64,000 nucleotides of DNA from Pseudomonadales bacterium. Lineage in GTDB: Bacteria > Patescibacteriota > Microgenomatia > UBA1400 > PJMF01. Under the pieces are notes generated by a model. That model searched no databases. It was not told the DNA's origin and saw only the letters and a list, made by a program, of their open reading frames with translations. Shown here one piece after another: positions 11,431-55,639 of this stretch. The stretch is from NCBI GenBank assembly GCA_020632265.1, contig JACKFW010000001.1:465892-529891 (forward strand), read 5' to 3'. Numbering within the stretch: the first letter of the stretch is position 1; every line of letters begins with the position of its first letter. A program made the translations under genes and the position numbers.

Positions 11431-11540
11431 GTTTCATATTAGTCCATGAACGCAGACTCTTAATAATGAATATACAACATTTTTTTATAAACAAAAGAAT
11501 CAAAATGATTCAATCTGGGTTTTATTGAACAATAAATCCA

Positions 11541-11660
11541 GTGGTAAACCACGGGGAGGGGGAAACGATCCAGGGAGGTATCCGGCTTCGCTTCGCGAGC
11601 CTGCCTCCCTTCCATGCCCCTACGGGGCAACCAGGAAAGGAAAAAATCACATGCGAGCTA
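11541..11660. other. GC-rich highly structured element, candidate origin (dso/sso) or ncRNA of the integrated replicon
   Basis: ggggagggggaaacgatccagggaggtatccggcttcgcttcgcgagcctgcctcccttccatgcccctacgggg. A 7-bp stem agggagg/cctccct encloses a GGCT(t)CGC-TTC-GCG-AGCC hairpin, and there is a cccc-tac-gggg hairpin. Local GC is far above the surrounding DNA. Confidence 0.4.
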
Positions 11661-11758
11661 CGCTCGAAGTGATATAGAGGTAACTAACAAAAGTGAAATT
11701 TCAGAATTATGATAAAATTAAAACTGATATTTGAAATTATATAAAGAAATAAATGTGA

Positions 11759-12532
11759 ATGACAAAAATAAAAACAGAGACAGGAATATTGCCACACACT
11801 CTCTTAGTTCCAAATCCTGAAATAGAATCTTTATCAATTCATGAAAAAAACTTGCGTCAAAATTTTCCGAACTTTGAGAGAGTTTCTAATGATTACCTTG
11901 TTAATGAATTGAAAATGGGCAATCAATTTGCCGAAATAATGGATGAGCTGGGAAAAATGAAAAGAAGATTTGGCATTTGTGGAATTATTTCAGGAACAAG
12001 TTTGGCACTATTAACTAGCCCTGATTTTTATAATAATAGATTTAACTTTTCTCCAAAAGAATATAAAAGAATGTTTGATGAAAATATTAAAAAAGGTACA
12101 AAAAAACCTTTTGATTTATTTGCTGAACAATATCTTCTACAGGAGTTTTCCGTACCAGTACTACCTCCAATTATGTCAGCAGAAGGATTAAATAAAATAC
12201 TCTTTAATTTGAAAAGCAATCAGGGATTACATACTTGTGTTTTATGTGAATACGAGGAAGAAAAAGGAACACATACTCATTTTTTAGCTATTAAAAAAAT
12301 CGACCAAAAAAAACTTTTAGTTGTGGGTGACTTAAGCCCATTCGGTTTAAATTGTTGGGGTATTATAGTTCCAGTAGAAGATTATGCGGAGGCTTTAACA
12401 AAAGTAATTGGTGCGAGTTCAACAACAACTGTGAGTGATGCAATTATACAAACAAATATTAAATTTGGAGATGGATTGGATAATTCTAATATATTTGATA
12501 AAAATGCTTATATTTGGACTTTCGAAAACTAA
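11759..12532 (+). CDS. hypothetical protein (cassette 1), possible Cys/His peptidase-like
   Basis: 257 aa with conserved Cys (GICGIISG) and His (HTHFLAI) that could form a papain-like dyad. This is weak. Confidence 0.3.
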   Translation: MTKIKTETGILPHTLLVPNPEIESLSIHEKNLRQNFPNFERVSNDYLVNELKMGNQFAEIMDELGKMKRRFGICGIISGTSLALLTSPDFYNNRFNFSPKEYKRMFDENIKKGTKKPFDLFAEQYLLQEFSVPVLPPIMSAEGLNKILFNLKSNQGLHTCVLCEYEEEKGTHTHFLAIKKIDQKKLLVVGDLSPFGLNCWGIIVPVEDYAEALTKVIGASSTTTVSDAIIQTNIKFGDGLDNSNIFDKNAYIWTFEN

Positions 12533-12579
12533 TTTTATTGAAAATATAATGATTTATCAATATAAAGATTGCTTAAAAA

Positions 12580-12608
12580 AGTTCCAATTTCATCCCACAC
12601 TCTCCGCA
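12580..12608 (+). repeat. tRNA-Ser-3'-end-like cassette boundary repeat (variant B: AGTTCCAATTTCATCCCACnCTCTCCGCA)
   Basis: agttccaatttcatcccacactctccgca. It is nearly identical over 17 nt to the 3' end of tRNA-Ser(TGA), atccctcgctctccgca. Confidence 0.7.
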
Positions 12609-12611
12609 ATA

Positions 12612-13202
12612 TTAAAATAAATCTTTATACGCTACACTTCCCCAGATTGATTCCTGAGGAAATTCTGACTCTTTAATCTGTCTTACTGAAACACCATTAG
12701 TATCCATATGATCGAGTACAACACCACCTCCACTAGTTGCAACTTCTTCTAAAGAACTTACTATAACTATTTTTCCATTTGGGTTTATCTCATACATAGT
12801 TATAAATGTGTCTATATCGGTGGTCCACATTCGTTCTGGTTTTGGCTTATCTAGTGGATCAGTAATTCTATAAAGAACTACCAGTTTAGGATCTACACCT
12901 AACCTTTCTAACTCCTCAATTGGCAGTTGCTCCCCTTCTTCAAGGTCTTGTTGAGAAATTGAGGCACGATGTTCAATAGTTACCATGTGGAGTCCAGTCT
13001 CTTGGAGTTTGTGAACGATAATAGAAAAGTCATTTTGTTGCTTTACAAGATCAGCCACATTGACTCCAATTCTAGTTTCAATTATTTTAGCAAGTGATGG
13101 CATTCTTAAACCCTGAATTTCTGCGGCACCTTGGTCGACTAACCCTAATAAATTTTTTTTTCTAAATGTAGCATTAGTTGGTGATTCTGCAAAAAAAGTC
13201 AT
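12612..13202 (-). CDS. hypothetical protein (cassette 2)
   Basis: 196 aa with no recognisable motif. It is flanked on both sides by variant-B repeats. Confidence 0.4.
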   Translation of the reverse strand: MTFFAESPTNATFRKKNLLGLVDQGAAEIQGLRMPSLAKIIETRIGVNVADLVKQQNDFSIIVHKLQETGLHMVTIEHRASISQQDLEEGEQLPIEELERLGVDPKLVVLYRITDPLDKPKPERMWTTDIDTFITMYEINPNGKIVIVSSLEEVATSGGGVVLDHMDTNGVSVRQIKESEFPQESIWGSVAYKDLF

Positions 13203-13236
13203 AGTGAGATTGTATATTTTATGGCTAAATTAAAAA

Positions 13237-13330
13237 AGTTCCAATTTCATCCCACGCTCTCCGCATGTAGGGACTCCTGGCAGGAATTGTGTTAAAATTT
13301 GGATAGGTGTAGGGACTAGAGAACCTAAAC
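13237..13330 (+). repeat. full cassette junction unit (variant-B core plus promoter-like module)
   Basis: agttccaatttcatcccacgctctccgca then tgtagggactcctggcaggaattgtgttaaaatttggataggtgtagggactagagaacctaaac. It ends 10 bp before the next start codon. Confidence 0.7.
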
Positions 13331-13340
13331 ATATCTTATT

Positions 13341-14183
13341 ATGAAATTTTCAATTATTGTTCCAACTTATAACAGAGCATATATACTTCGAAATCTAATT
13401 AGATCAGTCTTAAACCAAACTTATAATGATTGGGAGTTACTAATAGTTGATGATGGTTCTACTGATTCCACTAAAGAAGTTGTGAAAAAAATTAGTGATA
13501 AAAGGATTATTTTCCTTGAACAAGAAAATCAAGGTCCTTCTGCTGCCAGAAATTATGCTTTAAGTAAATCTACTGGTAAATGGATTGCTTATATTGATAG
13601 TGATAATGAGTTATTGTCGAATTATCTTGATGTTTTATTAATCTTTATTCAAAAAAATCCGGAAGCATTGTTTAGTATTACTAAAGGTATTAGAACATTA
13701 GAACTATTTGAAAATGATCAGCTGGTCGACATTATTGATGATTCTGATAATTATCCTAAAACTGTTTCCGTTGAGGATGTCTATACAAGAAAAGTTAAGT
13801 TTGACATTAATGGATTCGCTCATTCAAAAAAAATATACAACGATGATTATCAGTGGAATGAAGATTTGTCCTTAATGGAAGATTGGGATTTTTTCATGCA
13901 GTTTGCTGATAAATACAAAGATGGACTTGTTTACATTAACATTCCAGTTTTTCACTATCACCAAAGATTTGGAACAGATGGTCTCGTATCAAATGCTAGT
14001 TATAAAGATTGGGCTAAAGCCTTTGAAACAATTTATCAAAGACATAAAAATTCAAAATATATTAAAAATCAAGAATGGTATCCACAAAGAGTTGAAAAAT
14101 ATATACAATTAGCAGTACAGGAAAAAAAAGGAGAAGCAAAACCTGCCTATCTTAAGTATTTCCCAAACTTTGTTTCAAGCTAG
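13341..14183 (+). CDS. family 2 glycosyltransferase (cassette 3)
   Basis: 280 aa with the N-terminal FSIIVPTYNRAYIL...LIVDDGSTD GT2 signature. Confidence 0.75.
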   Translation: MKFSIIVPTYNRAYILRNLIRSVLNQTYNDWELLIVDDGSTDSTKEVVKKISDKRIIFLEQENQGPSAARNYALSKSTGKWIAYIDSDNELLSNYLDVLLIFIQKNPEALFSITKGIRTLELFENDQLVDIIDDSDNYPKTVSVEDVYTRKVKFDINGFAHSKKIYNDDYQWNEDLSLMEDWDFFMQFADKYKDGLVYINIPVFHYHQRFGTDGLVSNASYKDWAKAFETIYQRHKNSKYIKNQEWYPQRVEKYIQLAVQEKKGEAKPAYLKYFPNFVSS

Positions 14184-14214
14184 GATTAAAAAGGTTATTT
14201 TGATTTGAATAGTA

Positions 14215-14308
14215 GGTTCTAACTTGGTACACACACCTCCGCAAGTCAGAACTCCAGGCAAAGAATGTGATAAAATTAGGATAGGTGTAGGGACAGTAGA
14301 ACCTACAT
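14215..14308 (+). repeat. full cassette junction unit (variant-A core GGTTCTAACTTGGTACACACACCTCCGCA plus promoter-like module)
   Basis: ggttctaacttggtacacacacctccgca then agtcagaactccaggcaaagaatgtgataaaattaggataggtgtagggacagtagaacctaca. The core resembles the tRNA-Ser(GGA) 3' end ggttcgaatcccttcacctccgcca. Confidence 0.7.
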
Positions 14309-14331
14309 TAAATTATCAATAGAATATACAT

Positions 14332-15186
14332 ATGTCAGTAGAAGGCTATCGACCAGAAAGAATTCCAACAAGAAGAATAGAAGGTTCTGAAATTAGTACT
14401 TTCAGAGAAATAACTATCGATGAAACTGATCCTGTTGATCTATTTGATATTAGCTGGCCAAATTATAATGCCGGAATTAAGTTTAAAAAAGTTGGATCTT
14501 ATTCTAAGAAACGCTATGGTGTTGAAGAAAGATACCCACTTTATGAAGCAATTGCAATTTTTAAAGATTTAAAGAATAAAGTTCATGAAATAAATTTAAC
14601 AAAGACAACGAGTAGAAAAAGATGCTTATTTACAGGATCAAATTCTGGTTTTTTTATGCATGATCCTGCTTGGGTAGGCATTGATTCGGATTATTATGTT
14701 GTTGGAATTAATCCACGGGAATTACAAGCAGATATTAGAAGACAGATAGCAACTTATCACGAACTTGGACATGCAGAAATTGTGGATCATGGATATGATA
14801 CTCAATTGCTTAAAGGATCTACAACTATGAAAGATAAAGATTTACCTGCTATTTCTATGATTAAAGCTTATGCTAAGAAAGTAAAAGATGCTTTAATTGG
14901 TGCAAGGTATGATATAGAAAAAATAAAAAACATTACTATTACACCACAGATATTATTTGCTCTAATGAATGATGATACTGAAATTGATTCAAGCATAAGA
15001 TTGTTTCATGAAAGAAATGCTTGGGCTGGTGGAGATAAACTTATAAGAAAGCATAAATTTCCAATTGGTTTTGAAAAGAAGAGCTCTTTAAGAGAATATA
15101 GTCAATTTTGTTTAGAAACATATGCAAGATATTATAGTGAAGCAAAATTTACAAAAGGTATGAGAGATCGGAAAAATAGGTTCTAA
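14332..15186 (+). CDS. hypothetical protein with HExxH zinc-metallopeptidase-like motif (cassette 4)
   Basis: 284 aa containing IATYHELGHAEIVDHGYD (HExxH). The TAA stop lies inside the TTCTAAC of the following repeat. Confidence 0.4.
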   Translation: MSVEGYRPERIPTRRIEGSEISTFREITIDETDPVDLFDISWPNYNAGIKFKKVGSYSKKRYGVEERYPLYEAIAIFKDLKNKVHEINLTKTTSRKRCLFTGSNSGFFMHDPAWVGIDSDYYVVGINPRELQADIRRQIATYHELGHAEIVDHGYDTQLLKGSTTMKDKDLPAISMIKAYAKKVKDALIGARYDIEKIKNITITPQILFALMNDDTEIDSSIRLFHERNAWAGGDKLIRKHKFPIGFEKKSSLREYSQFCLETYARYYSEAKFTKGMRDRKNRF

Positions 15187-15208
15187 CTTTGTACACACAC
15201 CTCCGCCA
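15179..15208 (+). repeat. variant-A core repeat overlapping the upstream stop codon
   Basis: ggttctaactttgtacacacacctccgcca, followed by an A-run/T-run hairpin aaaaaaaataacctttttgggtatttttttt. Confidence 0.7.
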
Positions 15209-15229
15209 TAAAAAAAATAACCTTTTTGG

Positions 15230-15400
15230 GTATTTTTTTTATGACGAAATGGCAAAAGGCATGGAGAAGATTGTTCACACCAGCACCTTCAGCACCTACT
15301 GAATGCATGTTCCCACAATTGCCTTACTTCGTATATCCTTGCTAGCTTCCTAGCGCAGCATTAAGTTGCAAACTTCAGAATATCTTGGACTACTCATATA
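15230..15400. repeat. internal copy of the tRNA-Ser(GGA) att-flank region
   Basis: caaaaggcatggagaagattgttcacaccagcacc...gcatgt... is homologous to 21690-21760 (tgcaaaaagattgttcgcaccagtaag...tagtgcatgtgag), which directly precedes the terminal att copy. Confidence 0.45.
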
Positions 15401-15411
15401 AAATAATTTTC

Positions 15412-16335
15412 TTACGCCCATACTAGTGGATGGTCAGAATCCTTCTTTCTCAGAATTGTTGAAAATAGTTTTTTTCCTTTGTTGGGACCAATTTCCACTT
15501 GTAAAATTCTGTTAAGATGAAAATCAGTTAATGCTCTTTCATAAGCAATATCAAAAGATGGCTTAGTTTCATAATTCATAAGAGAACTCTCATTTCCAAT
15601 GGGTGATGGTTCTCTTGATGAGAAAGAAGAATCAATAAAAATACCGTTTTGTGATAAAAGCTCAAAAATGCGTGGTACATGAAATTCTGGGATGTTACTA
15701 TGAACTAAAGACATTCTACTGTGAATCAAGTTAACATTCCCAATAAGTGGTATCACTCCACTCTCAGTTTTAATCTTTAATTGTCTAAATGATTTCACAT
15801 CTTTTGTATCATTGCCAGTTAGTTCTGCTTCCACATATTCAACTAAATTATTTTCTAAAGCATATATTATTGGAGACATATCTAAACCAACATTCGCAAG
15901 TCTAGATTCAGCTGCTAGATGTATATCAAAATTTTGCTCAATATTTGAAATGATAAGCTTTACTTTTCCTTCATTAATCTCATTTTCCAATATTCTTGCA
16001 ATTCTGCAAAAACTCAAACCCAGTCCTCCTCCAAAATCTAAAACTACAATAGGACCACCTCCATCTTTTTTCTCAAGTAGTTGAAGGATCATTTGTTCGA
16101 GACTTTTTTCTATACCTAATAGACTTTCTTTTGTTTCTTCTGTTCTATAAATACTTTCACTCACTCCCATGAGAGTTGATGTACCAAAATCTGCGCTGAA
16201 AACAGGCTTGCTGTAGTCACCAATAGCAAATGACCAAGCTTCACCTGATTCTTCCTTGCCCATTGAACGATATCTTTTATTTTCTAAATGTTGTCTTTTT
16301 AATCTTTTATGAAAATTTCTAAATTCTTGGTTCAT
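15412..16335 (-). CDS. class I SAM-dependent methyltransferase-like protein (cassette 5)
   Basis: 307 aa with motif I VVLDFGGGLGLSF and a downstream acidic residue pattern typical of the Rossmann-fold MTase. Confidence 0.5.
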   Translation of the reverse strand: MNQEFRNFHKRLKRQHLENKRYRSMGKEESGEAWSFAIGDYSKPVFSADFGTSTLMGVSESIYRTEETKESLLGIEKSLEQMILQLLEKKDGGGPIVVLDFGGGLGLSFCRIARILENEINEGKVKLIISNIEQNFDIHLAAESRLANVGLDMSPIIYALENNLVEYVEAELTGNDTKDVKSFRQLKIKTESGVIPLIGNVNLIHSRMSLVHSNIPEFHVPRIFELLSQNGIFIDSSFSSREPSPIGNESSLMNYETKPSFDIAYERALTDFHLNRILQVEIGPNKGKKLFSTILRKKDSDHPLVWA

Positions 16336-16475
16336 ATATATTATATATTACACAACTATATCAAGAAATGATAGGATAATTGGTATATATTGGTCTCATA
16401 TATAGATGGTTTTTTTGCAAGCAATATTTTTTCCAAAGTAAGTCCTCAAATTGGAGAAGTTATTTCTTTTAAAAA

Positions 16476-16569
16476 AGTTCCAATTTCATCCCATGCCCCC
16501 CGCAAGTCAGAACTCCAGGTTAGGAATGTGATAAAATTGGGACAGGTATAAGGAATTTAGAACCTAAAA
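16476..16569 (+). repeat. full cassette junction unit (variant-B core plus promoter-like module)
   Basis: agttccaatttcatcccatgccccccgca then agtcagaactccaggttaggaatgtgataaaattgggacaggtataaggaatttagaacctaaaat. Confidence 0.7.
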
Positions 16570-16573
16570 TACA

Positions 16574-17269
16574 ATGAACACAACTAATTTAACAATTAAT
16601 CTTCAAAAAATAATTAAAATTCTTTCTAAAAACAAACATTTAGAATTTTCTCATACCCAATTAGGAAAAATTTCGGAAAATGAAATTAATACTCCAATTG
16701 GAGACGCAATATCACTTTTTTCAAATAAAAAATGTAAACTTTCAAATGATTTGATTGATCTAGAGCTATTAGAAAAATTGGTTAGCCAGTTAACAAAAAA
16801 TAGCTCAATAATTCGTCCAAGTCATATAGGTTTTTGCTATAAAGTTTTATCAGTAAATGATGAGAAGATCAGAATATCTAATTTAGCAAAAGAATCAGAT
16901 TTAGATTTATACCAAGAGGAATCAAATGATGATGGTCTATGGCTTTTTGTTGGAGATGCAAATAAATGGGAAGAGCCAGTTATTGAATTAATTCCAATAG
17001 AATCCACAAATGATAAATATGTAGATTATTGGTTGCCTCACATTCAAATAGATATTGATACAAATTTAACTGGAGAAGAAATAGATAAAATTGTTAAATC
17101 TATTTTTGGAAACAAGATAATTCCATTTTTTATCAAAATTGATGGTGCAACTTATATTATTAGAAATAGGTTAGGTGTTATTGATGGAGTGAATATTTTT
17201 CTTGACTTAGCAACAAATTCTAGAAAAGTTAAATACTTAAGGCAAGAGTTGTGGAAGAAGATTGTATAA
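16574..17269 (+). CDS. hypothetical protein (cassette 6)
   Basis: 231 aa with no motif recognised. Confidence 0.4.
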   Translation: MNTTNLTINLQKIIKILSKNKHLEFSHTQLGKISENEINTPIGDAISLFSNKKCKLSNDLIDLELLEKLVSQLTKNSSIIRPSHIGFCYKVLSVNDEKIRISNLAKESDLDLYQEESNDDGLWLFVGDANKWEEPVIELIPIESTNDKYVDYWLPHIQIDIDTNLTGEEIDKIVKSIFGNKIIPFFIKIDGATYIIRNRLGVIDGVNIFLDLATNSRKVKYLRQELWKKIV

Positions 17270-17274
17270 AATAG

Positions 17275-17303
17275 GTTCTAACTTGGTACACACACCTCCG
17301 CAA
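17275..17303 (+). repeat. variant-A core repeat
   Basis: ggttctaacttggtacacacacctccgca, 5 bp after the stop of the upstream gene. Confidence 0.7.
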
Positions 17304-17372
17304 GTGATAACAGATCATTTTTTGTGATATACTAAAATTCAATTATTATTATCTACATAATAGGAACATTTT

Positions 17373-17765
17373 ATGAACACCTATGATCAATACAGTCCAA
17401 ATCAGGAAGAAGTAGAAGCATGGACTAACAAAGTTATATCATTAGATATTTTATCAGATGAACAAAAGGAAGAAATAAAAAGACTCAGAGAAAAAAATGG
17501 TTGGGAAGATTTACCTCAGGAATTAGCAGAGATTATTTATAAATTTATTCCTTATTCATTTGATTTATTATCCTTTTCTCGTTTCGTTAATTTATATTTA
17601 GATGCTAATGATCAAGAAAGAGATAAAGCTAAAGAATTAATTCTAAGTTTAGATAATGTGAAAATGACACGAAAACAAGCATTCGATTTTGTAATTTTCA
17701 CTCTAGATGGATCAATTAGTGAGGCTGTAGAAAAAATCAGGTCAGGACAGCCTATATATAGCTAA
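17373..17765 (+). CDS. hypothetical protein (cassette 7)
   Basis: 130 aa, acidic, with no motif. Confidence 0.4.
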   Translation: MNTYDQYSPNQEEVEAWTNKVISLDILSDEQKEEIKRLREKNGWEDLPQELAEIIYKFIPYSFDLLSFSRFVNLYLDANDQERDKAKELILSLDNVKMTRKQAFDFVIFTLDGSISEAVEKIRSGQPIYS

Positions 17766-17976
17766 GTTAAAAAATATTTTATTATATTGCTTTTATAATA
17801 ATTAGTTTATCAATAATTTATACTATCACTCAAGACAAATTTTTTTGCATATATGGGCTGTGGAGGACTACATTAATAGGCCTAGTAAATAAATGTATTA
17901 ACGGATTTGTTTGTGCGTCTAATCAGATTCCAAACTTTTCTGGATGTGGTGGTACTTGTAAACCCAAATAATAATA

Positions 17977-18006
17977 GGCTCTAAATTGGTACACACAGCT
18001 CCACCA
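17977..18006 (+). repeat. degenerate variant-A core repeat
   Basis: ggctctaaattggtacacacagctccacca. Confidence 0.5.
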
Positions 18007-18096
18007 AACAGGATAATACCCCCTTTATCAAAGTCGATATTAGTTTAATATATGTTGCTTAGTTTATGGTTTAATGTGTCGTTTTAATTTCAAGCT

Positions 18097-18558
18097 ATGA
18101 GTGATACTATTATAAACATGAGTCAATTTTTTCTTGCTTATTGGTGGTTATTGCTTTTAGTAATAATTATTATAGCAATTTTCACTAGAAATTTAATTAA
18201 ATTTCTAACTACAGTTATAATATTTATTTTTATATTTATCGTTTTTTGGCAAGTAATTATAAAATCAGGATTTACTCAATCAAATCAGTGTTTCACAAAT
18301 GACTTGAGTTCATCAATCTCTATTAATGAGCGTGCAAAACTTATGAATCCTGGCATAGAGAGAAATCAATATATATGTTCAGAAAGTGTAAAAAGTTTTA
18401 TTTTACTTGAAAACTGTTTAAATAATTCAAAGTTTTCAAACAAATTAAGCTTTACGATTTTTTCCAATCTACCTTGGTTTAAAAATACTATGAATGATGT
18501 TGTAACAACTCATAATCAAAATTGTCCTAATGATCGAATAGACACTCTAACTTATTAA
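18097..18558 (+). CDS. hypothetical membrane-anchored protein (cassette 8)
   Basis: 153 aa with two N-terminal TM helices. Confidence 0.4.
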   Translation: MSDTIINMSQFFLAYWWLLLLVIIIIAIFTRNLIKFLTTVIIFIFIFIVFWQVIIKSGFTQSNQCFTNDLSSSISINERAKLMNPGIERNQYICSESVKSFILLENCLNNSKFSNKLSFTIFSNLPWFKNTMNDVVTTHNQNCPNDRIDTLTY

Positions 18559-18598
18559 AAGCTTATATATTTTATTATTAAACAGTTATCTCAAACCA

Positions 18599-18689
18599 GG
18601 TTCTAACTTGGTACACACCTCCACATGTCAGAACTCTAGGTTAGAAATGTGCTAAAATTGGGATAGGTGTAGAGAATTTGATATCTAAT
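18599..18689 (+). repeat. full cassette junction unit (variant-A core plus promoter-like module)
   Basis: ggttctaacttggtacacacctccaca then tgtcagaactctaggttagaaatgtgctaaaattgggataggtgtagagaatttgatatctaattagaacctaat. Confidence 0.7.
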
Positions 18690-18743
18690 TAGAACCTAAT
18701 ATATATTAAATTGCATTAATAATTTTGTATTGTATTATAAGCA

Positions 18744-19013
18744 ATGTTGTATAAAAAAAAAGTTGTTATGTCACAAAAAATATCAAAATCATCATTACAG
18801 ACAAAAATGATTAAGATAATTGTTAAAAAATATGCTTTGGGTTATATAAATTCAATGAAGGCACGTAACCTAATGGCAGAGGTGTTATCAAAGCTTTCTC
18901 ATTCTACAATTGGACAACTTGATTATCACCAAGTTCTATATTTAACAAGAATAGATGCCATTTTTAGTGAGTTAAAAGATTTCTATTTATCAAAAAATAC
19001 AAAAGGGAATTGA
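18744..19013 (+). CDS. hypothetical small protein (cassette 9, first gene)
   Basis: 89 aa. Its stop overlaps the start of the next ORF. Confidence 0.35.
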   Translation: MLYKKKVVMSQKISKSSLQTKMIKIIVKKYALGYINSMKARNLMAEVLSKLSHSTIGQLDYHQVLYLTRIDAIFSELKDFYLSKNTKGN

Positions 19014-20647
19014 TGATGCATGAAAATTGGTCCATCCCGCCAAATGAAAAAATGACCTTCGGAGAAAGAGGAAGACGAATTAAAAGAAAAGTTATTAAAA
19101 CTTTAAATAGGTTTCAAACACTTTTTTGTATAAGAGATAAAACAGTTGCAGAGATTGCTAAAGCAGAAGATGAAAGTTCTAAAAATATTGATCCCATTAA
19201 TCAATTTGCTGTTACTATGATAAGTGCAGAACCAACTGATTGGATTAATATATTGACTAGTTTGAATGATGATGAATCAGTTGATCTAGATAAAACAATA
19301 GTTGCTCCAGAAAAAACTACTCATGAAAAAGTTCCTTTTGGTTATTTACAAATAGTAACTAAATTAGATCAGGAACAAGTTGAAGATGATGATTCTTTCC
19401 CAAGAATTGAAGGTAGTTTAGAACCTCTTTCAACAAAATATGCTGTTCAAGTTGCAGATTCTTCAACAACAAAGATAACAGATAATTTATCACATCATCG
19501 AATGATGATTGCTACACCACGTTCAGGGAGACAACTAAACGAACTACTTGATGCAGAAATTATATATGGTGGCAGAGCTATTTCTACAATAATGATTAAA
19601 GGTACTGGAGTTCCCAATATAGTCAGAGAAACTTGGGTTGATTATGCAGGGCAAGATGACCCATTTTTTTTCACAGAAAAACAGACTGGTGGTGAAACGG
19701 CAACAGGCTTGATTGCTAAAAATGAAATGATGGGACCAGCACTCAAAGAAGATCAAGTAGAAGATGCGCGAAATTCATTAGTTCTTCATAATGCTGGAGT
19801 AAAGGTAAGAATTCCTTTAGGTGGTTGGGAAGTTAAATCATTTGTTATTGCTGGAGAACAAAAAGATATTGCTTGGTTTAAAGAGCATGGATATGATGGA
19901 GAAGTGTTATATCAATCTGCTTGGGGAATGACATGTCCTTTGCGCATTGAAGATATCAATGATATGTTATCAGAAGCTGTTTATGTTAATAATAATCCAA
20001 AACTACTTGATGATTTACTCAAAGAATTACTTGTTTTTGCACAAAAAGATAAATCAAAACCCTATGTAGATCTCTCTAAAAAATGGAAAGATATTTTAGA
20101 TTTAGATAATTTTGAACTTGATGAAGATACCCGAGTACAGCTCTGGACAGATTTTGGCATTGCTCTCTGTGAAACTATGGGCAGTAATTTTGATTCAATG
20201 CATAAAGCTAATTTAAAGCATGGTAATGCTCATGATCAAAATATTTCATTTTTTGGTGAACTATGTGATAACTCAACTGTAAGTGAGGGTCTACTTGTGT
20301 CTGGAGGTGATCAAAAAATTGGTGATGATATTGATAGTTTTGCTGATGGCATGAGAAGATTCAATGATCGGGTATTAGCAATGAGTGGTGTAAATACCTT
20401 TGATGAGTTTGAATTAGTACAGGAAGCACTTGATAAATATAAACAGGCAGTTAGAAAAAACTGGATATCTTATGAAGAATGGGTGAAGACTAGTACTGGG
20501 TTGCTTGTTTCTGATAATGACAACAGAAATAGAGCTGAAAATGAATTAAATGAATATCAGAATGAAGTAGACGAGTATGATATAAGCAGACAAATACTCA
20601 GAAAAACTGGTGGAGAAAGACGATTTCGAATATATGGTGAAGATTAG
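19010..20647 (+). CDS. hypothetical protein (cassette 9, second gene)
   Basis: 545 aa, acidic, soluble, with no motif recognised. Confidence 0.45.
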   Translation: MMMHENWSIPPNEKMTFGERGRRIKRKVIKTLNRFQTLFCIRDKTVAEIAKAEDESSKNIDPINQFAVTMISAEPTDWINILTSLNDDESVDLDKTIVAPEKTTHEKVPFGYLQIVTKLDQEQVEDDDSFPRIEGSLEPLSTKYAVQVADSSTTKITDNLSHHRMMIATPRSGRQLNELLDAEIIYGGRAISTIMIKGTGVPNIVRETWVDYAGQDDPFFFTEKQTGGETATGLIAKNEMMGPALKEDQVEDARNSLVLHNAGVKVRIPLGGWEVKSFVIAGEQKDIAWFKEHGYDGEVLYQSAWGMTCPLRIEDINDMLSEAVYVNNNPKLLDDLLKELLVFAQKDKSKPYVDLSKKWKDILDLDNFELDEDTRVQLWTDFGIALCETMGSNFDSMHKANLKHGNAHDQNISFFGELCDNSTVSEGLLVSGGDQKIGDDIDSFADGMRRFNDRVLAMSGVNTFDEFELVQEALDKYKQAVRKNWISYEEWVKTSTGLLVSDNDNRNRAENELNEYQNEVDEYDISRQILRKTGGERRFRIYGED

Positions 20648-20754
20648 TGTATAAATGTATAAAATGAATGTTTTTATGGTTTAATACAGTTGAAGCATTA
20701 GAGCTTTATTTAGCTCAAGAAAGAAGTATTATCAGTGATCGACTAAGTAAAACA

Positions 20755-20783
20755 GGTTCTAACTTGGTACACACACCTCCGCA
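20755..20783 (+). repeat. variant-A core repeat
   Basis: ggttctaacttggtacacacacctccgca. The listed 61-aa ORF 20668..20853 spans it and is probably spurious. Confidence 0.7.
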
Positions 20784-20871
20784 TATTAAGAGACATATTA
20801 GTGCTTTAGAATTAAATTTGATGTTTCTTTTTAACAATTGTAAGAACGCATAGTTTTTCTATACTAGATAA

Positions 20872-21537
20872 ATGGATAAAGAAACAAAAACACACACTGA
20901 ATTTGGTATAAGATCTCAAGAAAATAAAAGGCTGATAAACCAGCTTCAGCTTCAGAAACTTAGTCCTGATATAGATTTTTTTCCCAAAGTCGTAGGCTTT
21001 AAAGATTTTGATAATTCTCAGGGATATGAAGTTGAACAAATTGTTGGACAAACATTTCAGGAACTCATGAGTAGTACTAGTAGCTCTGATTTTATTAGAC
21101 TTCTTCTTGTTGCAACTGAGCAGCAACAAAAACTTTTCAAAAATTATGGCATTTTAGTAAAAGATAGAAATAAAGATAATTTTATTTTTGGAGTAAAAGA
21201 TGAAAATTCAAATCTAAAAGTATATCAAGTAGATTTAGAATCTATTTATGATTCTGTTACAGATGCCGACTTTCTTGATATAAATGAACACTTATTATCA
21301 AGATCTAGTAACCCAATTAAAATTAGTAATGAAAATAAAACTGGCATAGAAATTGCAGATATATGTGATTCACTTCAAGAAATATTTATTGAATATTTAA
21401 AAAGAAAAAAAAGAACACAAATTGAGCAACAAGTTTATGTTAAATGGAATAAAAGACTTGGGACTATTAGGAGGATAAAAAACTTTGATAAACTAACTAT
21501 ACTTTTTGAAGATTTATTGAGAATTTTTGGAAATTAA
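20872..21537 (+). CDS. hypothetical protein (cassette 10)
   Basis: 221 aa with no motif. Confidence 0.4.
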   Translation: MDKETKTHTEFGIRSQENKRLINQLQLQKLSPDIDFFPKVVGFKDFDNSQGYEVEQIVGQTFQELMSSTSSSDFIRLLLVATEQQQKLFKNYGILVKDRNKDNFIFGVKDENSNLKVYQVDLESIYDSVTDADFLDINEHLLSRSSNPIKISNENKTGIEIADICDSLQEIFIEYLKRKKRTQIEQQVYVKWNKRLGTIRRIKNFDKLTILFEDLLRIFGN

Positions 21538-21600
21538 AAATTTGATAAATTGCTCATATCTGAAAATATGAACTAAAAGCCAACTTTTATTTAACTTAAT

Positions 21601-21632
21601 AAAGTTCCAATTTCATCCCACGCTCCCCCGCA
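21601..21632 (+). repeat. variant-B core repeat
   Basis: aaagttccaatttcatcccacgctcccccgca. Confidence 0.7.
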
Positions 21633-21790
21633 TATACAAAAAAGTCTCCTGAAAGGCGATGTTTTTGTATAATTGGGGTGTGGTTTGGTATGCAAAAAGA
21701 TTGTTCGCACCAGTAAGAAGTGAGCATCTGCGAACTTCCTGCTTAGTGCATGTGAGCTTCCTTAAGTAGATGCAAATTGCAGCGAATCGT

Positions 21791-21810
21791 GAATCCCTTC
21801 ACCTCCGCCA
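21791..21810 (+). repeat. terminal direct repeat (attR-like): exact 20-bp copy of the tRNA-Ser(GGA) 3' end
   Basis: gaatcccttcacctccgcca is identical to 8891-8910. It defines an island of about 12.9 kb downstream of the tRNA. Confidence 0.75.
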
Positions 21811-21819
21811 TCGTGTATG

Positions 21820-22920
21820 AAGAAGCCAAGAGATCTGTTAAATATGCCTGTCAATCGATCATTTTAGTCAATTCTAACCTTTGATATTCTCTTCGCAGTG
21901 CTGGTGCGTTGTGTTTGATGGGGACAAACCACTTCATTGGCTCAATATAGAGTTTCTCGCCTTGATTTTAGGATTTTATAGCCAAAATATCAAGCACCCT
22001 TTTTCGTAGACACGGTTTCTAATTAGTTAGCGTAGAATTTTGCAGGCGGCATTTTAAGTGCCGAATGAATTCTGCTATGGTTGTAGTTGTAAAGTGTGTA
22101 GTGAATTTCTTCGAGAAAATGACCTTCTGATTCGAAACGAGCAAATTCAAGACCTAAATCAGTTTTAAAGTTGTTATAAAATGATTCTTGAAATCCATTT
22201 TCTCAAGGCGAAGACTTGGTACTCATAGAAATAGTAACTCCAAAGTCTTGCACTGATTTTGTGTAATCTTGACTTATGTATTCAGAGCCCTGATCGGTGT
22301 GAATATAGATTGGTTTTTGAAAATCTCTTCTTTTTCTCCATCTGGCTTTTCTTTTATATGGCTTGATGCCAAATAACTGCATACATCTTCGAACTCGCTT
22401 TTTGCCAACATCCATCTCAATTGCAATTCTTCTGGACCCATAACTTGGTTGATTAACCAACACTGACTCCATTTGTTCCCTGAGTAAAGTATCTTTTTGT
22501 TTTTGTAAAAAGATCGTTTTGTATAGCCATTGTCGAGAAATACCAAGTGCTTTTGCAACAAACTTTTTATCTAACTAAAGATGAATCTGAGTTGCTTTTT
22601 TAGCTGTTTGTGTTTTTCTTTTTTTTTGATCTCTCCAACTCGAGTGTGACGACCCCCAAGATCTTTTTTAAATCTTCATTTTCCTTGAGCAACCGTTTAT
22701 ATTCTCGGTAATTGACTTGCTCGGTCACTTGACCTCGCAACCAACTATAAATTGTCTTGTCACTCACACCGTATTGTTTGGAAAGTTCCACTGCTTTCTA
22801 TCCAGAATTCACTTTTGCCAGTATTTCAGACTTCACCTCTTATGCTATTTCTACCATTTTTTTTCCTCTCGTTTACCATATTTTACTTAGAGTCTGTGTA
22901 AACTATAAGGGGAGTAAGTG
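21820..22920 (-). mobile_element. decayed IS3-family insertion sequence (transposase broken into at least 3 frames)
   Basis: The ORFs 22600..22791 (HTH OrfA-like MELSKQYGVSDKTIYSWL...), 22274..22561 and 22203..22472 (DDE core ...IHTDQGSEY...) are fragments, and C-terminal transposase sequence continues down to about 21.85 kb with internal stops. The end sequence gtaaactataaggggagtaag at about 22890 is repeated as solo ends elsewhere. Confidence 0.6.
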
Positions 22921-23124
22921 ACTTTGACGAAAAGCAAATTTTTAAATTAAATTTATAATTAATTTTTCTGATTTGTGTATTATACTAAAATAAATAAATC
23001 AATTTTAATAGTTAATTGTAGTAATTGAAAAATTAATCTTTATTATGGCAATACATCTTTGATATAATTTCTTCTCACAATTAAAGAGGATGCTTGCTCA
23101 TCATATAAGCACAGATAGTAGTAT

Positions 23125-24679
23125 ATGCGAGATATTAAAAGAATATATATATTTTTATTTATTATTAGTATAGCAACTATATTTCTAATCTTCAACAACA
23201 TACAATCAAAAAATATACCCTGGTTTTCTGATAATGCAAGAGATTATTTGGTAGCTAAAAATATTATTAAGCATCATGATTTCAAATATATTGCACCTTT
23301 TGCAGAGTTTCAAGAAAACACTTTAGCTAACAGTGTTTTTTACTATTACTTTCTATCAATCTTTTATTTATTTTCCTTTGATAATGAAAAAATATACTTA
23401 TTACTTTATATGGTCTTTTATGCTAGTACGATATTCATTTTTTCTTATTTACTCGGTCGAATATTTTTAGAAAAAAAAACTTTTTTCCATATTTCCAATT
23501 CTGATTTATTTTACCCCTACTATTTATGCTCACGGCAAGTTTATTTTTCAGCCTAATTTTATTTTTCCTATCTTTCTAGTTTGTCTTTACTTTCTTTTTT
23601 CTGCATTTAAAGAAAAATCAATTAAAAGGCTCTCGCTATCTACATTTTTATTTATAATATGTCTAAATATTCATCTCTCAGTTCTTGTATTAATTCCTTG
23701 GATCATTGTTAATAGTATTTATGTCAGAAGCAATTTTAAAAACGTTCATCCTTTTTGGATGATAGTTCCAGACTTAATATTTATTACTGGTATTTATTTC
23801 TTTTTTCTTAATCAAAAAATTATATCTCAATCAAAAAATTGGTTTGATTTCATAATTATTTTTTTCAAAAATATCTTAAATGGGAAGTCCGCTAATTTTG
23901 ATTTAATAGATAATGCCAAATTCTTAATGGAAGAAATAATGAGTAGTGATTTTCATATTAGAAAATTTCAAATAATCTTTTTTATTTTTGTGTTTATTTT
24001 ATCTATAATAATTTACATTAAAAAAAATAAAAATTACTATACTAATTCTTTGATGCTTGCTTTGGCTACTTACATGATAGTGTTCATCTCATTAACTGAT
24101 CTTAGGAATTTTTATTTTTTTCCTGCATACATTATATTAGTATGTTTTGTGATAATTAATATCTTAAAATTAAATCAAAAAGTAGTAATTTTGGTATTTT
24201 TAATATCAATATTTTTTAATTTTGGTATTATTTTTAATGACTTATCCTACAGGAATCGAGATGAGAACAAAAATAAATATCAATTAACTGCAGAGATAAT
24301 TGATAAAGATCTAGCAACTTTGTCAAAAAATGAGCCACATGCATTTTTAATATATTCTGTAGATGATACTCTAAATTTTTCAAATCCTGTTTATTGGTTA
24401 TATTTAGAAAAAAAACTTAATTATCAAATTGTAGAGAATGGAAATTTTTTTAGATTTAGTTTATTGCCCATAACAAAAAATTCAAACAATTTGTATCTTA
24501 TTTGTGATAACCCAAATACAAATTTTGAAGAACCGCCTGAAAAATATAAATGCTTAGAAAGAATTGAGATGCAAAAAGGAATAAAAAATTATTCTAAATT
24601 ATTTGATCAAAAAAATAACAATTTTTCTATATATAAAATTGATCTTATTGATAGCATGAGCAGATATGAGACTCTCTAA
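23125..24679 (+). pseudogene. frameshifted polytopic membrane glycosyltransferase-like gene (two ORFs 23125..23556 and 23759..24679)
   Basis: Both ORFs are extremely hydrophobic, and hydrophobic coding continues through 23560-23760 in another frame. It resembles the 3833..5491 membrane protein in composition. Confidence 0.35.
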
Positions 24680-24906
24680 AGAAACTATTTTACAATTTAG
24701 AAAACTTATTTTTTTTTAGGTTAAAATACAGAGTTATAAATATTGGTTAGATCATCCTAGAACATATTTCAAAGAGCAATTATTCAATTTAAAGATAAAC
24801 AAAAATATACTTATTACCAGAATTAGGTTATAATTTTATAATTACAGATCAAGAAACTCCCCACAATTGAAAAAAGCTCAAGTAGACAACTTTTTACCGC
24901 TGCAGT

Positions 24907-24937
24907 AAAGTTCCAAGTGCATCCCATACTGCTCGCA
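24907..24937 (+). repeat. degenerate variant-B core repeat
   Basis: aaagttccaagtgcatcccatactgctcgca. Confidence 0.5.
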
Positions 24938-24991
24938 AAATATATAAAAAGACCGATTTGATATTTAAAAAAATAAAGATTAAATTAAGAA

Positions 24992-25453
24992 TTATCTAAT
25001 GTTTTTTTGTGTATTCCGTTCATGATAGTCGTAATCAGCTTTTAATATTGCATCCATTCCATCAGTTCTATCAATTCTTTTTTGTTTTGCATTCAAATTA
25101 TAGTCATCAATTGAGAAATTACTAATTATATCCATGTTTACTAATGTAGTTCCACTTCCAATGACTCCAGCATAAATTTGTTCATCGATTTGTGTTAATA
25201 CCACCATTTTACGAATAGATACAGCTTTGTAAAAATATTGGATTGTTGGCAATTCACCATTTTCTCTGTAAATCATCGCAGATTTACCATTTATAAATTT
25301 AGCTAAAGAATTTGCTTGACCCTCAGTGAGGATTCCACTATCAACTAGGGATTTAATATCTTTTGATTTGCTAATTAACTCAAGATTGTCATTTTCAAGT
25401 GCTTTATTTAATAGGTTTATTGGTGATTCACCATCTATTATTTTTTCAGTCAT
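24992..25453 (-). CDS. hypothetical protein
   Basis: 153 aa with no motif. Confidence 0.4.
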   Translation of the reverse strand: MTEKIIDGESPINLLNKALENDNLELISKSKDIKSLVDSGILTEGQANSLAKFINGKSAMIYRENGELPTIQYFYKAVSIRKMVVLTQIDEQIYAGVIGSGTTLVNMDIISNFSIDDYNLNAKQKRIDRTDGMDAILKADYDYHERNTQKNIR

Positions 25454-25603
25454 AAGTTATATGGTATCACAAAATTTATTGGTTTTATACATAATTAATC
25501 AACTTCTTATTTATAATTCATATTGATTTTGAACAATTAAAGATTAAATATATTACTCATATCAGAAAAAAGGAACTAGCAGTCAACTTTTATTTCATTT
25601 AAT

Positions 25604-25755
25604 AAAGTTCCAACTTCATTCCACGCTCCCCGCATTTGACAGAAAGTGAGCTTTAGCTCAGTTTGTGTCAAATATGAATGGGATGAGAAGTTTATGCCCC
25701 ATCAAGCGAAATATAAAAATATAAATTTGAGCATGACCGGGCTTAAATCCCCCTC
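25604..25755 (+). repeat. module M copy 3 (diverged): variant-B core, hairpin, conserved about 60 bp, then a degenerate tRNA-Ser(CGA) 3'-end 17-mer
   Basis: aaagttccaacttcattccacgctccccgca...tatgaatgggatgagaagtttatgccccatcaagcgaa...aaatttgagcatgaccgggcttaaatccccctccctc aligns with the reverse complement of 54351-54515 and of 57741-57877. Confidence 0.6.
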
Positions 25756-25915
25756 CCTCTTAACAATCTGAAGATTTAATAGACTCAAACTTGCAACAGA
25801 AGAATACGAGGTCTCATTAAAGGATTAATCCTCAAAATAATCACTCTGCAAATCAAACATCATTTGGATTAATGGAGGTATTCAAGCCCCTTATAGGACT
25901 AAGTCAAGCCAAGTT

Positions 25916-26995
25916 CTACGGGCTTGATTGTGACTTTTCACTCTCTCGACCGTCTAAAATCCCATCACCATCTGAGTCCGGATTGATTGGGTCAGTACCA
26001 TGTCCAACTTCATAACCATCTAATAATCCGTCGCCATCTGAGTCCGGATTGAGTGGATTGGTGGGATAATAAAAAGTTTCATCACCATCTAATAATCCGT
26101 CGCCATCTGAGTCCGGACTGAGTGGATGGGTGTGAGCTTGAAAAAATTCAGTCCCATCAGCTGATCCATCACCATCAGTATCTTGATTATTTGGATCAGT
26201 ATGTAGAAGCTTAGTCTCCTCGTAGTCCATCAATCCGTCGCTATCTGAGTCCGGATTGAGTGGATCAGTACCATGTTGTTTAACTTCATCGCCATCTGAT
26301 AATAAGTCACCATCTGAGTCCGGATTGATTGGGTCAGTACCATGTCCAACTTCATCACCATCTAATAATCCGTCGCCATCTGAGTCCGGATTGAGTGGGT
26401 CAGTATGAAAATAATTTTCCTCATCAAAGTTCCACAACCCATCTCGATCTGTATCTGGATGAAGTAATCCAGAAAGATATTGGTTAAAATTTGGCAATTC
26501 TTGAGAAATCAGGCATATACCAAGGGAAGAGCTACCAAGTATGGCTACTAGAAAAAGCATACGCATCCTGTTTCTAAATCTTATTCCCCGCCTTCTCCTT
26601 CTCTCCCTATTTGTTTCCTCAGTAGGTGCTGTAATAGAAATTACTTCTGTCTGAGTAGAATTGCTATTTGGTGGTGGATAAATTTCAACTCTTTCTATAT
26701 CTTCTGGGAATCTCTCTCCTCCATAAATTAATAAAAGAAGTTTTTCTCTAACACCTTGCCGTAGACTTTGAGGAATAGTTTCTAGTGCATTCTCTAGTGA
26801 AGAGCCTAAATTGTGATTAGTTGACCGTCTGTAGTGTCCTGCAGCTGCGGGATTACCATGACAAATAATCAAATCTGCGGCATAATTCCATTCGAGGGAC
26901 CGCTGATTATTTGTAACATGATCGGTTGGTTCCAAAAGAGTTTCGTGATCAGGACTCAAAATTTTAATACGATGATCTAATGAACGTTGTATCAT
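25916..26995 (-). CDS. membrane-anchored protein with thrombospondin type-3-like calcium-binding repeats
   Basis: 359 aa. After an internal TM segment (LFLVAILGSSSLGICLI) it carries at least 8 tandem DP(L/I)NPDSDGDGLLDGDE repeats. Confidence 0.55.
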   Translation of the reverse strand: MIQRSLDHRIKILSPDHETLLEPTDHVTNNQRSLEWNYAADLIICHGNPAAAGHYRRSTNHNLGSSLENALETIPQSLRQGVREKLLLLIYGGERFPEDIERVEIYPPPNSNSTQTEVISITAPTEETNRERRRRRGIRFRNRMRMLFLVAILGSSSLGICLISQELPNFNQYLSGLLHPDTDRDGLWNFDEENYFHTDPLNPDSDGDGLLDGDEVGHGTDPINPDSDGDLLSDGDEVKQHGTDPLNPDSDSDGLMDYEETKLLHTDPNNQDTDGDGSADGTEFFQAHTHPLSPDSDGDGLLDGDETFYYPTNPLNPDSDGDGLLDGYEVGHGTDPINPDSDGDGILDGRESEKSQSSP

Positions 26996-54515: not shown

Positions 54516-54658
54516 GGGAGCATGGGATGAAATTGGAACTTTTTTCTCTCAATAAACATAAGCCTATATATTTTATATTGAGTTTTTAGAAACAGCGAAA
54601 TCTTTCAGATTCATAACTAATATAAAATAACAAATTTCAATTAAAAATAGTATTAATA

Positions 54659-55610: not shown

Positions 55611-55639
55611 TAAATATTTAATCAACATTCAACCTACAC

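Follow-up and report, generated by a model that had tools for sequence, protein, structure and literature searches.

A tRNA-Ser flank module at putative attachment junctions of integrative elements and gene cassettes in Patescibacteria

The window analysed here, a stretch of 64,000 nucleotides of contig JACKFW010000001.1 (positions 465,892 to 529,891, forward strand), comes from a Patescibacteria genome of the Microgenomates type (about 1.08 Mb) and contains three copies of module M, a non-coding unit that consists of a 39-bp A/T-rich hairpin, a body of about 78 bp and a copy of the 3' end of tRNA-Ser(CGA). The presence of dnaG, ahcY and proS indicates that the window is chromosomal. We favour the view, which we consider probable if well short of certain, that M is a tRNA-Ser flank unit at an attachment junction used by integrative elements encoding a large serine recombinase (LSR) and a replication initiator (Rep), as well as by gene cassettes. 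This view builds on the observed repeats, their homologues in related genomes, the positions of the junctions, a pair of filled and empty sites, the association with an LSR and a 5-bp offset between two kinds of tRNA-like ends.

Three copies of module M in the window

The three copies and the tRNA or tRNA-like ends that precede them comprise the following features.

57876-57962, minus strand: genuine tRNA-Ser(CGA), called by ARAGORN and the Rfam tRNA model (45 bits)
57837-57875, minus strand: hairpin H1 of M copy 1, GTCTGTAAAAAAGTAGGCTGTAAGCCTATTTTTTTACAG, terminator-like in both directions
57758-57836, minus strand: body of M copy 1, with the invariant blocks GGGATGA, TGCCCGATCAAGCGA and GAGCATGACGAGGGTAAATCC, an imperfect long hairpin
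57741-57757, minus strand: terminal 17-mer of M copy 1, aatccccctccctccgc, identical to the tRNA-Ser(CGA) 3' end (repeat family D7)
54513-54539, minus strand: variant-B pseudo-tRNA end GTTCCAATTTCATCCCATGCTCCCCGC, preceding copy 2 (repeat families I6, I9, I10 and I14)
54378-54512, minus strand: M copy 2, with hairpin H1 at 54474-54512, body at 54395-54473 and end at 54378-54394
25607-25633, plus strand: variant-B pseudo-tRNA end GTTCCAACTTCATTCCACGCTCCCCGC, preceding copy 3
25634-25759, plus strand: M copy 3, with hairpin at 25634-25673, body at 25674-25745 and end at 25746-25759

Copy 1 extends over 135 nt from the tRNA end to the end of the repeat, with a perfect 39-nt hairpin and a 79-nt body. 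The last 17 nt of the tRNA (57892-57876), which begin in the T-loop (AATCC...CCGC), are repeated at the end of M, and the junction between tRNA and module (...CTCCGC/, the slash marking the boundary) lies at 57876/57875. The three occurrences reported in the initial annotation were recovered, and no fourth copy was found in the window, both in a search with conserved blocks allowing up to three mismatches and in an nhmmer search with an M profile; the blocks GTTTATGCCCNATCAAGCGAA and ATATAAATTTGAGCATGAC (19-21 nt) are each present exactly three times, with chance expectations of 0.00 and 0.07, respectively. The same annotation had every unit end in the 17-mer, which holds in full for copy 1 only: copy 2 keeps 16 of the 17 positions (ccctAcgc; repeat family D7, 95% over 152 nt) and copy 3 retains the first 14 nt, followed by tta. 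Similarly, the hairpin said to be common to copies 2 and 3 is the same in shape and different in sequence (58% identical), that of copy 3 being of the type seen behind tRNA-Ser(TGA) in the related loci L013 and L014; H1 itself recurs at 54474-54512 and 55645-55682 and in L018. With the 17-mer and the preceding end repeat excluded, M1 and M2 are identical at 118 of 119 positions (99.2%) and M1 and M3 at 87 of 119 (73%, the same value as for M3 and M2), and the global alignment score of M1 and M3 is 48, compared with -13.8 +/- 5.9 for 2000 random segments of the window and -12.1 +/- 5.1 for shuffled sequences. The similarity outside the 17-mer is thus far above background.

Copy 1 forms the tRNA-proximal junction at tRNA-Ser(CGA), copy 2 the distal border of the 3.4-kb island behind this tRNA, approximately 260 nt upstream of a gene for a 2191-aa protein, and copy 3 the distal border of a 16.8-kb island that starts at tRNA-Ser(GGA). 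The previously noted dispersal over some 30 kb therefore resolves into two separate islands of opposite orientation, with copies 2 and 3 as inverted repeats around 28.6 kb of core genes (repeat families I16 and I17). Metagenome contigs from other samples carry the same junctions, namely tRNA-M1-flank (L004), variant-B/hairpin (L053, L054) and M3-flank (L010), indicating that the repeats are not an assembly artefact of the window; contigs recovered from six samples do not differ and are simply broken at the hairpin repeat.

Insertions between tRNA-Ser and module M

Variant-B is a 27-nt repeat (GTTCCAATTTCATCCCAYGCTCCCCGC) that occupies the exact place of the tRNA 3' end before the hairpin and M in copies 2 and 3. 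The proposal that it is a positional homolog of a tRNA 3' end is supported by a multiple alignment (A1) in which GTTCCAAT-TTCAT-CCCAYGCTCCCCGC lines up with GTTCGAAT-CCCCCTCCCTCCGC. The repeat carries the tRNA-like motifs GTTCNAAT and CCC..CTCCGC, the former being displaced by 5 bp away from the junction relative to its position in the tRNA. The GTTC-to-CCGC span measures 22 nt in all tRNA-Ser genes and 27 nt in nearly all ends of the A and B types measured in the window, L012, L013, L055 and L061, with 2 of about 19 differing (28 and 25 nt, both in the window). In the sites of serine integrases, attB has the motif for the zinc-ribbon domain 5 bp nearer to the crossover than attP does (PMC3783163). 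The left half-sites described here show the same 5-bp displacement, so that the tRNA-Ser ends can be read as attB-type and variants A and B as attP-type left half-sites. We infer that variant-B is an attP-derived, element-borne half-site and that variant-B/hairpin+M is an attR-type junction.

A filled and an empty version of one such site are found in L013 and L014 (Woesebacteria relative), which encode the same marker protein. In L014 the order is tRNA-Ser(TGA)/hairpin/M/flank, and in L013 it is tRNA-Ser(TGA)/hairpin'/M'/methyltransferase gene/variant-B/hairpin/M/same flank. The insert of approximately 0.94 kb encodes no recombinase and lies exactly between the tRNA end and the hairpin; the two hairpins of L013 are not alike, the distal one being the same as in L014. 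The tRNA-Ser(CGA) locus of the window has the layout of L013 (tRNA/H1-M1...3.2 kb...variant-B/H1-M2). Together with four LSR- and Rep-encoding elements described below, this pair points to ...CTCCGC/hairpin as the putative attachment site. The designation of the M copies as att-site modules is supported for the junction itself; M is a conserved flank to the right of it, also carried by inserted DNA (in L013 and in the window), and not the crossover site.

Under the proposed scheme, the CTCCGC/ junction would be used by integrative elements encoding an LSR and a rolling-circle Rep, and also by short gene cassettes without a recombinase, which were probably inserted between the tRNA and M and moved by the LSR. 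Each insertion would bring a variant-B end at its far side, yielding tRNA/insert...variant-B/hairpin+M, and this layout makes copies 2 and 3 candidate right-hand (attR-type) junctions. In the case of copy 1, the inserted DNA would have supplied its own hairpin and M next to the tRNA.

Integrative elements encoding an LSR and a Rep protein

The tRNA-Ser(GGA) island combines an LSR element with an array of units of about 1 kb, each with a single open reading frame (ORF), a promoter-like module and an end of the A or B type. The element comprises the following features.

8825-8910, plus strand: tRNA-Ser(GGA), proximal anchor of the 16.8-kb island closed by M copy 3, with the junction CTCCGC/CATTTTTC
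8899-10362, minus strand: LSR gene, which abuts and overlaps the 3' end of tRNA-Ser(GGA)
10359-11237, minus strand: HUH-type replication initiator (REP_ORF2-G2P/RepSA-like); the same gene pair is present in L012, L055 and L061
12581-12607, plus strand: variant-B end that closes the LSR+Rep element

The LSR contains the Pfam domains Resolvase (PF00239, E 1.4e-14), Recombinase (PF07508, 7.6e-15) and Zn_ribbon_recom (PF13408, 7.4e-08), that is, the serine-integrase order of N-terminal resolvase, recombinase and zinc ribbon, and it is encoded at the edge of the element. The LSR+Rep pair, with the junction CTCCGC/CATTTTT and a distal variant-B end, is also found at tRNA-Ser(CGA) in L012, at another tRNA-Ser in L055 and at tRNA-Ser(GCT) in L061, and all four related elements have a tRNA-Ser end as one border and a variant-B end as the opposite one (the closing ends corresponding to 12581-12607 are L012 17144-17170, L055 5067-5041 and L061 4791-4765). 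Moreover, behind the element's own variant-B end in L055 and L061, and behind the last variant-B end of the island in L012, there is a hairpin and then an M-like module (N or R) whose terminus is the 3' end of the local tRNA. Identity between the LSRs of the window and of L012 is 92%, compared with 76% for the chromosomal marker protein, and the two elements occupy different tRNA-Ser isoacceptors, suggesting that the element is mobile and recognises features common to tRNA-Ser 3' ends. Judging from these sequence comparisons, the LSR is the candidate enzyme, and the presumptive catalyst, for the whole system.

Within the 3.7-kb integrative element (8909-12607), which encodes the LSR, the HUH Rep and a 257-aa ORF at the 3' end of tRNA-Ser(GGA), a GC-rich conserved non-coding block (agtggtaaaccac...ggaggtatccgg...cctgcct...) is present at 11540-11680, with a counterpart in L012 (14278-14410); it has no match in Rfam and may represent an origin of the element or a small RNA. 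ORFs of 65 aa that are conserved beside the Rep gene in L012, L055 and L061 are possible candidates for a directionality factor. Insertion of the element gives tRNA-Ser(GGA) an encoded CCA (CTCCG-CCA). The tRNA targeted in L055 (10453-10540, minus strand) is assigned the unusual anticodon ACT by ARAGORN.

Alternatively, the M copies could have originated by homologous recombination or segmental duplication of dispersed repeats, for example through an inversion between copies 2 and 3, with no site-specific recombinase involved. The near identity of M1 and M2, hairpin included, suggests recent duplication or gene conversion, and both the inverted placement of copies 2 and 3 around the core genes and the CGA-type end of copy 3 in a GGA island are compatible with such events. 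We nevertheless regard this origin as very improbable, because the proximal and distal hairpins of L013/L014 differ and the break in these loci falls exactly at CCGC/, tRNA-Ser and variant-B ends precisely delimit the four LSR elements, and homologous exchange would not be expected to produce the constant 5-nt offset of the A- and B-type ends.

The Rep gene that accompanies every LSR raises the question of whether M, being hairpin-rich, orientation-specific and non-coding, could instead be a cis site for the HUH Rep (a rolling-circle origin or termination site), with the pseudo-tRNA ends as surrogate termination sites. The invariant CTTGAT on the bottom strand of M would be in line with this, as we take it to resemble nick sites of the pC194/phiX type, but a 6-nt match is weak evidence, no M-like sequence is present inside any of the four LSR+Rep elements, and their own conserved non-coding block differs from M; a role of this kind therefore appears extremely remote. 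Searches for a rolling-circle nick site in M and for dyad symmetry at the junction returned just coincidences of 4-6 nt.

Conservation of module M in related genomes

Homologues of M are located directly behind tRNA-Ser genes in four other Patescibacteria genomes, specifically behind tRNA-Ser(GGA) in L002, tRNA-Ser(CGA) in L013 and L018, and tRNA-Ser(TGA) in L013 and L014. The terminal copy of M always matches the local tRNA: cccaccacctccgc for GGA, ccccctccctccgc for CGA and ccctcgctctccgc for TGA. In L002, a Patescibacteria metagenome-assembled genome, M ends in the 3' end of tRNA-Ser(GGA) (aaatcccaccacctccgc), and the hairpin recurs behind it. Orthologous tRNA loci were retrieved from relatives through the neighbouring marker protein, the relatives of which are annotated as Woesebacteria, Pacebacteria, Microgenomates and Patescibacteria, and the proteins of the five M-bearing genomes are just 60-76% identical. 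Scans of the GTDB species representatives and JGI metagenomes with 21-mers yielded the true homologue L002 and the same-organism contig L010, the remaining hits being chance matches. A different module, N, takes the position of M in L017.

Searches of IMG/VR for M or variant-B gave no matches or chance matches, and blastn against phage and plasmid collections gave none; an origin of either sequence as part of a phage or plasmid is thus unsupported by these collections.

The modules appear to be composite. The CGA-type end of copy 3, combined with a hairpin of the type found at TGA loci, indicates that modules were reassorted, and L018 provides a further instance, with an M that carries a 40-nt insert corresponding to the body of a module in L061. 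This 40-nt sub-module (TGCCGGCAAG..CCTGCCTAAT..CGAAGGA) lies at L018 8397-8450, between AAATCC and the remainder of the tRNA-end copy of M, and constitutes the body of the module that follows the hairpin at L061 4700-4650 (minus strand), which implies that sub-modules reassort.

Directly behind the end of copy 1 lies a further conserved sequence.

57668-57740, minus strand: F module (A-ATAGTTGAAAAGTTATGTCAGACCCGTCTAATAT...), with a promoter-like TTGAAA-18-TAATAT

F is also found behind five other pseudo-tRNA ends (L018) and behind genuine tRNA-Ser genes in L002, L015 and L055. The arrangement M-end/F fits either of two readings, an ORF-less docking unit or an original tRNA 3' end that has been displaced together with its native flank. 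Under the first, M would be an ORF-less, cassette-like unit whose terminal tRNA-end copy could itself serve as a junction, a guess prompted by the fact that F, which elsewhere stands behind genuine tRNA-Ser genes, begins immediately after the end of M. The docking unit is our best guess, and the role of the M body is the weakest step of the reading that we favour. Behind the M1 end, the segment 57646-57739 (minus strand) contains a promoter-like site, a 22-codon ORF (MSDPSNMVEWVGDLCKNTSEIL) and a terminator-like hairpin; the DNA of this segment is conserved in L018 and the 22-codon ORF is not.

Under the second reading, M (and likewise N and R) would be the scar of an older, classical integration, that is, a mini-insert with a replacement tRNA 3' end behind which the displaced original end and the native flank persist (attL...attR), either non-functional or mobilisable in trans. 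The direct repeat indeed starts in the T-loop, as with many tRNA-targeting integrases; in L002 the repeat also covers over 30 nt of the hairpin; the sequence that follows the module end in L012/L013 (ACTGGTCA...) is the same as that behind an intact tRNA-Ser(CGA); and the F module follows genuine tRNA-Ser genes elsewhere, as noted above. Decay, however, is hard to reconcile with the constancy of boundaries and invariant blocks across nine copies in five genomes as divergent as these, the islands of the window yielded no tyrosine recombinase, and a double-stranded circle of 118-135 bp would be too small for ordinary site-specific excision. We accordingly consider a scar to be improbable.

Structure and possible function of the M body

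The nine M copies from the five genomes share the invariant blocks GGGATGA, TGCCCGATCAAG(C/T)GA and GAGCNTGACGAGGGTAAATCC, which enclose a variable AT-rich centre of 23-27 nt. In the consensus fold of alignment A1, the blocks form an imperfect hairpin that is kept in all eight aligned copies, with 95% of the hairpin cells paired, as against 26-48% in controls in which the partner strand was slid by 1-3 columns. In the closing helix, the 5' block pairs with AATCCC(N) of the terminal tRNA-end copy, and one closing pair covaries with the type of tRNA, being G-C in CGA-type and A-U in TGA-type copies. The M body accordingly looks like a conserved structured or palindromic cis element, or else a small RNA; in the scheme that we favour, it would act in cis as a structured or protein-binding element.

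Several other identities were considered and rejected. A small ORF on either strand does not survive inspection of alignment A1 by eye, as the frames are broken by single-nucleotide indels between copies and start codons are lost. A pseudo-tRNA or tRNA-Sec-like gene is contradicted by the lack of a cloverleaf and of acceptor pairing and by the absence of any ARAGORN or Rfam call: the two tools identify just five genuine tRNAs in the window, and M has TAAAT in place of the T-loop and lacks a 5' strand that pairs with the 3' strand of the acceptor. A resemblance to the hammerhead core (GAUGAG/UGACGAG) does not extend to the required C3 and GAAA positions, which are unconserved, and there is no match to a ribozyme family in Rfam.

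A small structured RNA gene in tRNA sense, the 3' part of which mimics a tRNA-Ser end and the duplicates of which happen to adjoin junctions, deserves closer consideration. The invariant blocks alternate with variable loops, hairpin-shaped insertions are tolerated at the helix junctions (the L013 TGA copies and L018), one-sided changes mostly produce G-U pairs on the sense strand (7 cells, compared with 1 A-C), and a terminator-like hairpin is located 0-95 nt downstream of several copies. Set against this, the G-U excess goes back to approximately 4-5 independent events, the folding scores of the body are weak and similar on both strands, no match above noise was obtained with Rfam 15 over 54300-58000 and 21500-25900 even at E<=10, no convincing promoter was found between the upstream terminator hairpin and M, and such a gene would leave unexplained why its 3' end tracks the neighbouring tRNA. 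On balance, we consider it unlikely that M is a small RNA gene.

A number of observations also speak against the flank-unit interpretation that we prefer. Folding energies of the M body alone barely exceed those of shuffled sequences (z -0.2 to -2.7) and are alike on both strands, and the covariation in the body comes from very few events. M is absent behind the same tRNAs in L012 (including tRNA-Ser(TGA)), L015 and L016, and is therefore dispensable at the site. All same-species contigs share the arrangement of the window, and no population variant of its islands was found. Copy 3 ends in the CGA type even though it closes the GGA island, so that a rearrangement or reassortment of modules has to be invoked. 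The right half-sites, that is, the hairpins, display no clear motif of the attP/attB type, and comparison by eye of the end of the LSR gene and the hairpins with the left halves gave just a 4-nt symmetric match. M1 and M2 share one hairpin on the supposed P' and B' sides, which is not expected under a strict serine-integrase model. Finally, the tRNA copy at the M end starts in the T-loop (AATCC), a left boundary other than CCGC/, and this fits an older, different integration chemistry.

Comparison with known systems

The behaviour of these elements resembles serine-integrase integration, staphylococcal cassette chromosome (SCC) islands and tRNA-anchored islands and, superficially, integron arrays. 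As in the serine-integrase systems of Listeria A118/LI, Bxb1 and phiC31, an enzyme with Resolvase, Recombinase and zinc-ribbon domains abuts the junction, the left half-sites (approximately 27 and 22 bp) share motifs, and the outer motif lies 5 bp further out in the element-borne site. Unlike in those systems, the target here is the 3' end of several tRNA-Ser isoacceptors, units accumulate in tandem, many of them without a recombinase, and no motif was recognised in the right half-sites.

Composite SCC islands, which are mobilised by Ccr recombinases, are similar in the LSR-driven insertion at the 3' end of a conserved gene, in tandem accretion with recombinase-less pseudo-cassettes, and in the short direct repeats at every junction. 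Tandem accretion of this kind, with recombinase-bearing and recombinase-less units sharing the same short repeat, is seen at 8.9-25.8 and 54.4-57.9 kb of the window and in L012. The best NCBIfam match of the LSR is CcrB (67.9 bits, cut-off 900), followed by CcrA (46.2, cut-off 700) and CcrC (34.8, cut-off 900), scores so far below the cut-offs that the enzyme is not a member of these families. Further differences are that the target is a tRNA gene rather than rlmH, that the units are often single genes of about 1 kb with a promoter-like module of their own, and that the host is a candidate-phyla bacterium.

In the tycheposons of Prochlorococcus, tRNA-adjacent islands are dotted with partial tRNA copies left by successive integrations that push older inserts distally (bioRxiv 10.1101/2020.12.28.424599). 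The islands described here likewise adjoin tRNA genes and contain scattered partial tRNA copies as well as cargo-carrying and degenerate units, whereas they lack a tycheposon-type tyrosine recombinase (no Phage_integrase-type match at E<=0.01 among 20 island ORFs), their partial tRNAs are restructured (+5 nt), and the organism and the target tRNAs differ. A Prochlorococcus tycheposon island, suggested by the 31% GC content, the tRNA-end repeats and the tRNA-Ser target, was rejected as an identification of the window, given that the relatives of the marker protein are Patescibacteria and the tRNA-proximal gene encodes an LSR.

Integron arrays are comparable in their short, mostly single-ORF units of one orientation, the recurring recombination site and the interspersed non-coding units (M and N in the present case). 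There is no IntI, attI or attC here, the sites being pseudo-tRNA ends and not folded attC hairpins, the units have their own promoter-like modules, and a tRNA gene serves as the anchor; the island ORFs searched include no tyrosine recombinase, and the hairpin-shaped M body does not stand at every junction. In cis-mobilizable elements and integrative and conjugative elements, accretion similarly places recombinase-less, att-flanked segments beside an autonomous element that could act in trans, although the units here are much smaller, the recombinase is of another class and there is no conjugation module. Because a defining feature fails in each case, we place the system outside the Ccr, tycheposon and integron families.

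We found no description of tRNA-Ser-anchored cassette arrays in candidate-phyla bacteria in the searchable literature. It is conceivable, and we put this forward tentatively, that they represent an undescribed integron-like system of Patescibacteria in which one LSR, carried by a small Rep element, inserts itself and many single-gene units without a recombinase at the 3' end of any tRNA-Ser gene, with the restructured pseudo-tRNA ends as attP half-sites. M, N and R, every one of which terminates in a new copy of the tRNA 3' end, would then be functional components, namely structured cis elements or small RNAs by which the docking site is renewed or regulated.

The genomes of Patescibacteria are tiny, and next to nothing is known of gene exchange in these bacteria. 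In the window and five related genomes, variable genes, including those for glycosyltransferases, methyltransferases and restriction or TIR defence, sit in tRNA-Ser-anchored arrays of short units with a common junction, and the window points to a specific candidate enzyme and to candidate attP/attB sequences. If confirmed, a serine integrase with several natural targets among tRNA-Ser genes and a possible ability to move minimal cassettes in trans would be of interest for the biology of mobile elements and for genome engineering. In addition, module M can serve as a sensitive marker of island borders in fragmented metagenome assemblies, the contigs of which break at these repeats.

Additional modules and islands

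Two copies of the sister module N are present in the window.

21632-21808, plus strand: N module (hairpin, body and 18-nt copy of the tRNA-Ser(GGA) end), behind the variant-B end at 21604-21631 (repeat family I15)
55523-55682, minus strand: second N module (H1-like hairpin, body and tRNA-Ser(GGA)-type end), behind the C-type pseudo-tRNA end at 55683-55706 (repeat families D8 and I15)

Module N, which is also found at L012 18741-18898 and L055 5040-4871 (minus strand), has the same layout as M and an unrelated body (GGTTCGCGACGGCAAGCGAAC..CCTGCCTAGTGCATGTGAG). Its terminal copy is of the GGA type in the window and of the CGA type in L012 and hence tracks the tRNA. A stable RNA is not indicated by the folding z-scores of N (-0.3 to -0.8).

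The integron-like array of the tRNA-Ser(GGA) island (12581-21631) consists of about eight short units, mostly with one plus-strand ORF, and its products include a glycosyltransferase, a methyltransferase-like protein and proteins of unknown function. Most units begin with a conserved promoter-like module (AAGTCAGAACTCCAGG..TGTGATAAAAT..GGTGTAGGGA), which is also located behind a B-type end in L012 (around 17790), and each unit ends in a pseudo-tRNA end of the A type (GGTTCTAACTTGGTACACACACCTCCGC) or the B type.

In the tRNA-Ser(CGA) island, the segment 56174-57323 (minus strand) contains four C-type pseudo-tRNA ends (GGTTCCAGACCCACATGCTCCGC) with tRNA-like spacing, each followed by ATCCTAGGATTCTAACTACAGTGA, and these ends surround a probably truncated PhzF-like ORF (56561-57229). 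A third, more decayed island extends to the right of tRNA-Ser(TGA) (59087-62050); immediately after the tRNA comes a kinase-like gene, and the island has one C-like end (59778-59801) and two B-like ends (60394-60420 and approximately 62011-62035). Immediately beyond M copy 3, 69-nt tandem repeats at 25965-26459 form part of a bacterial TSP3-repeat gene (25916-26995, minus strand).

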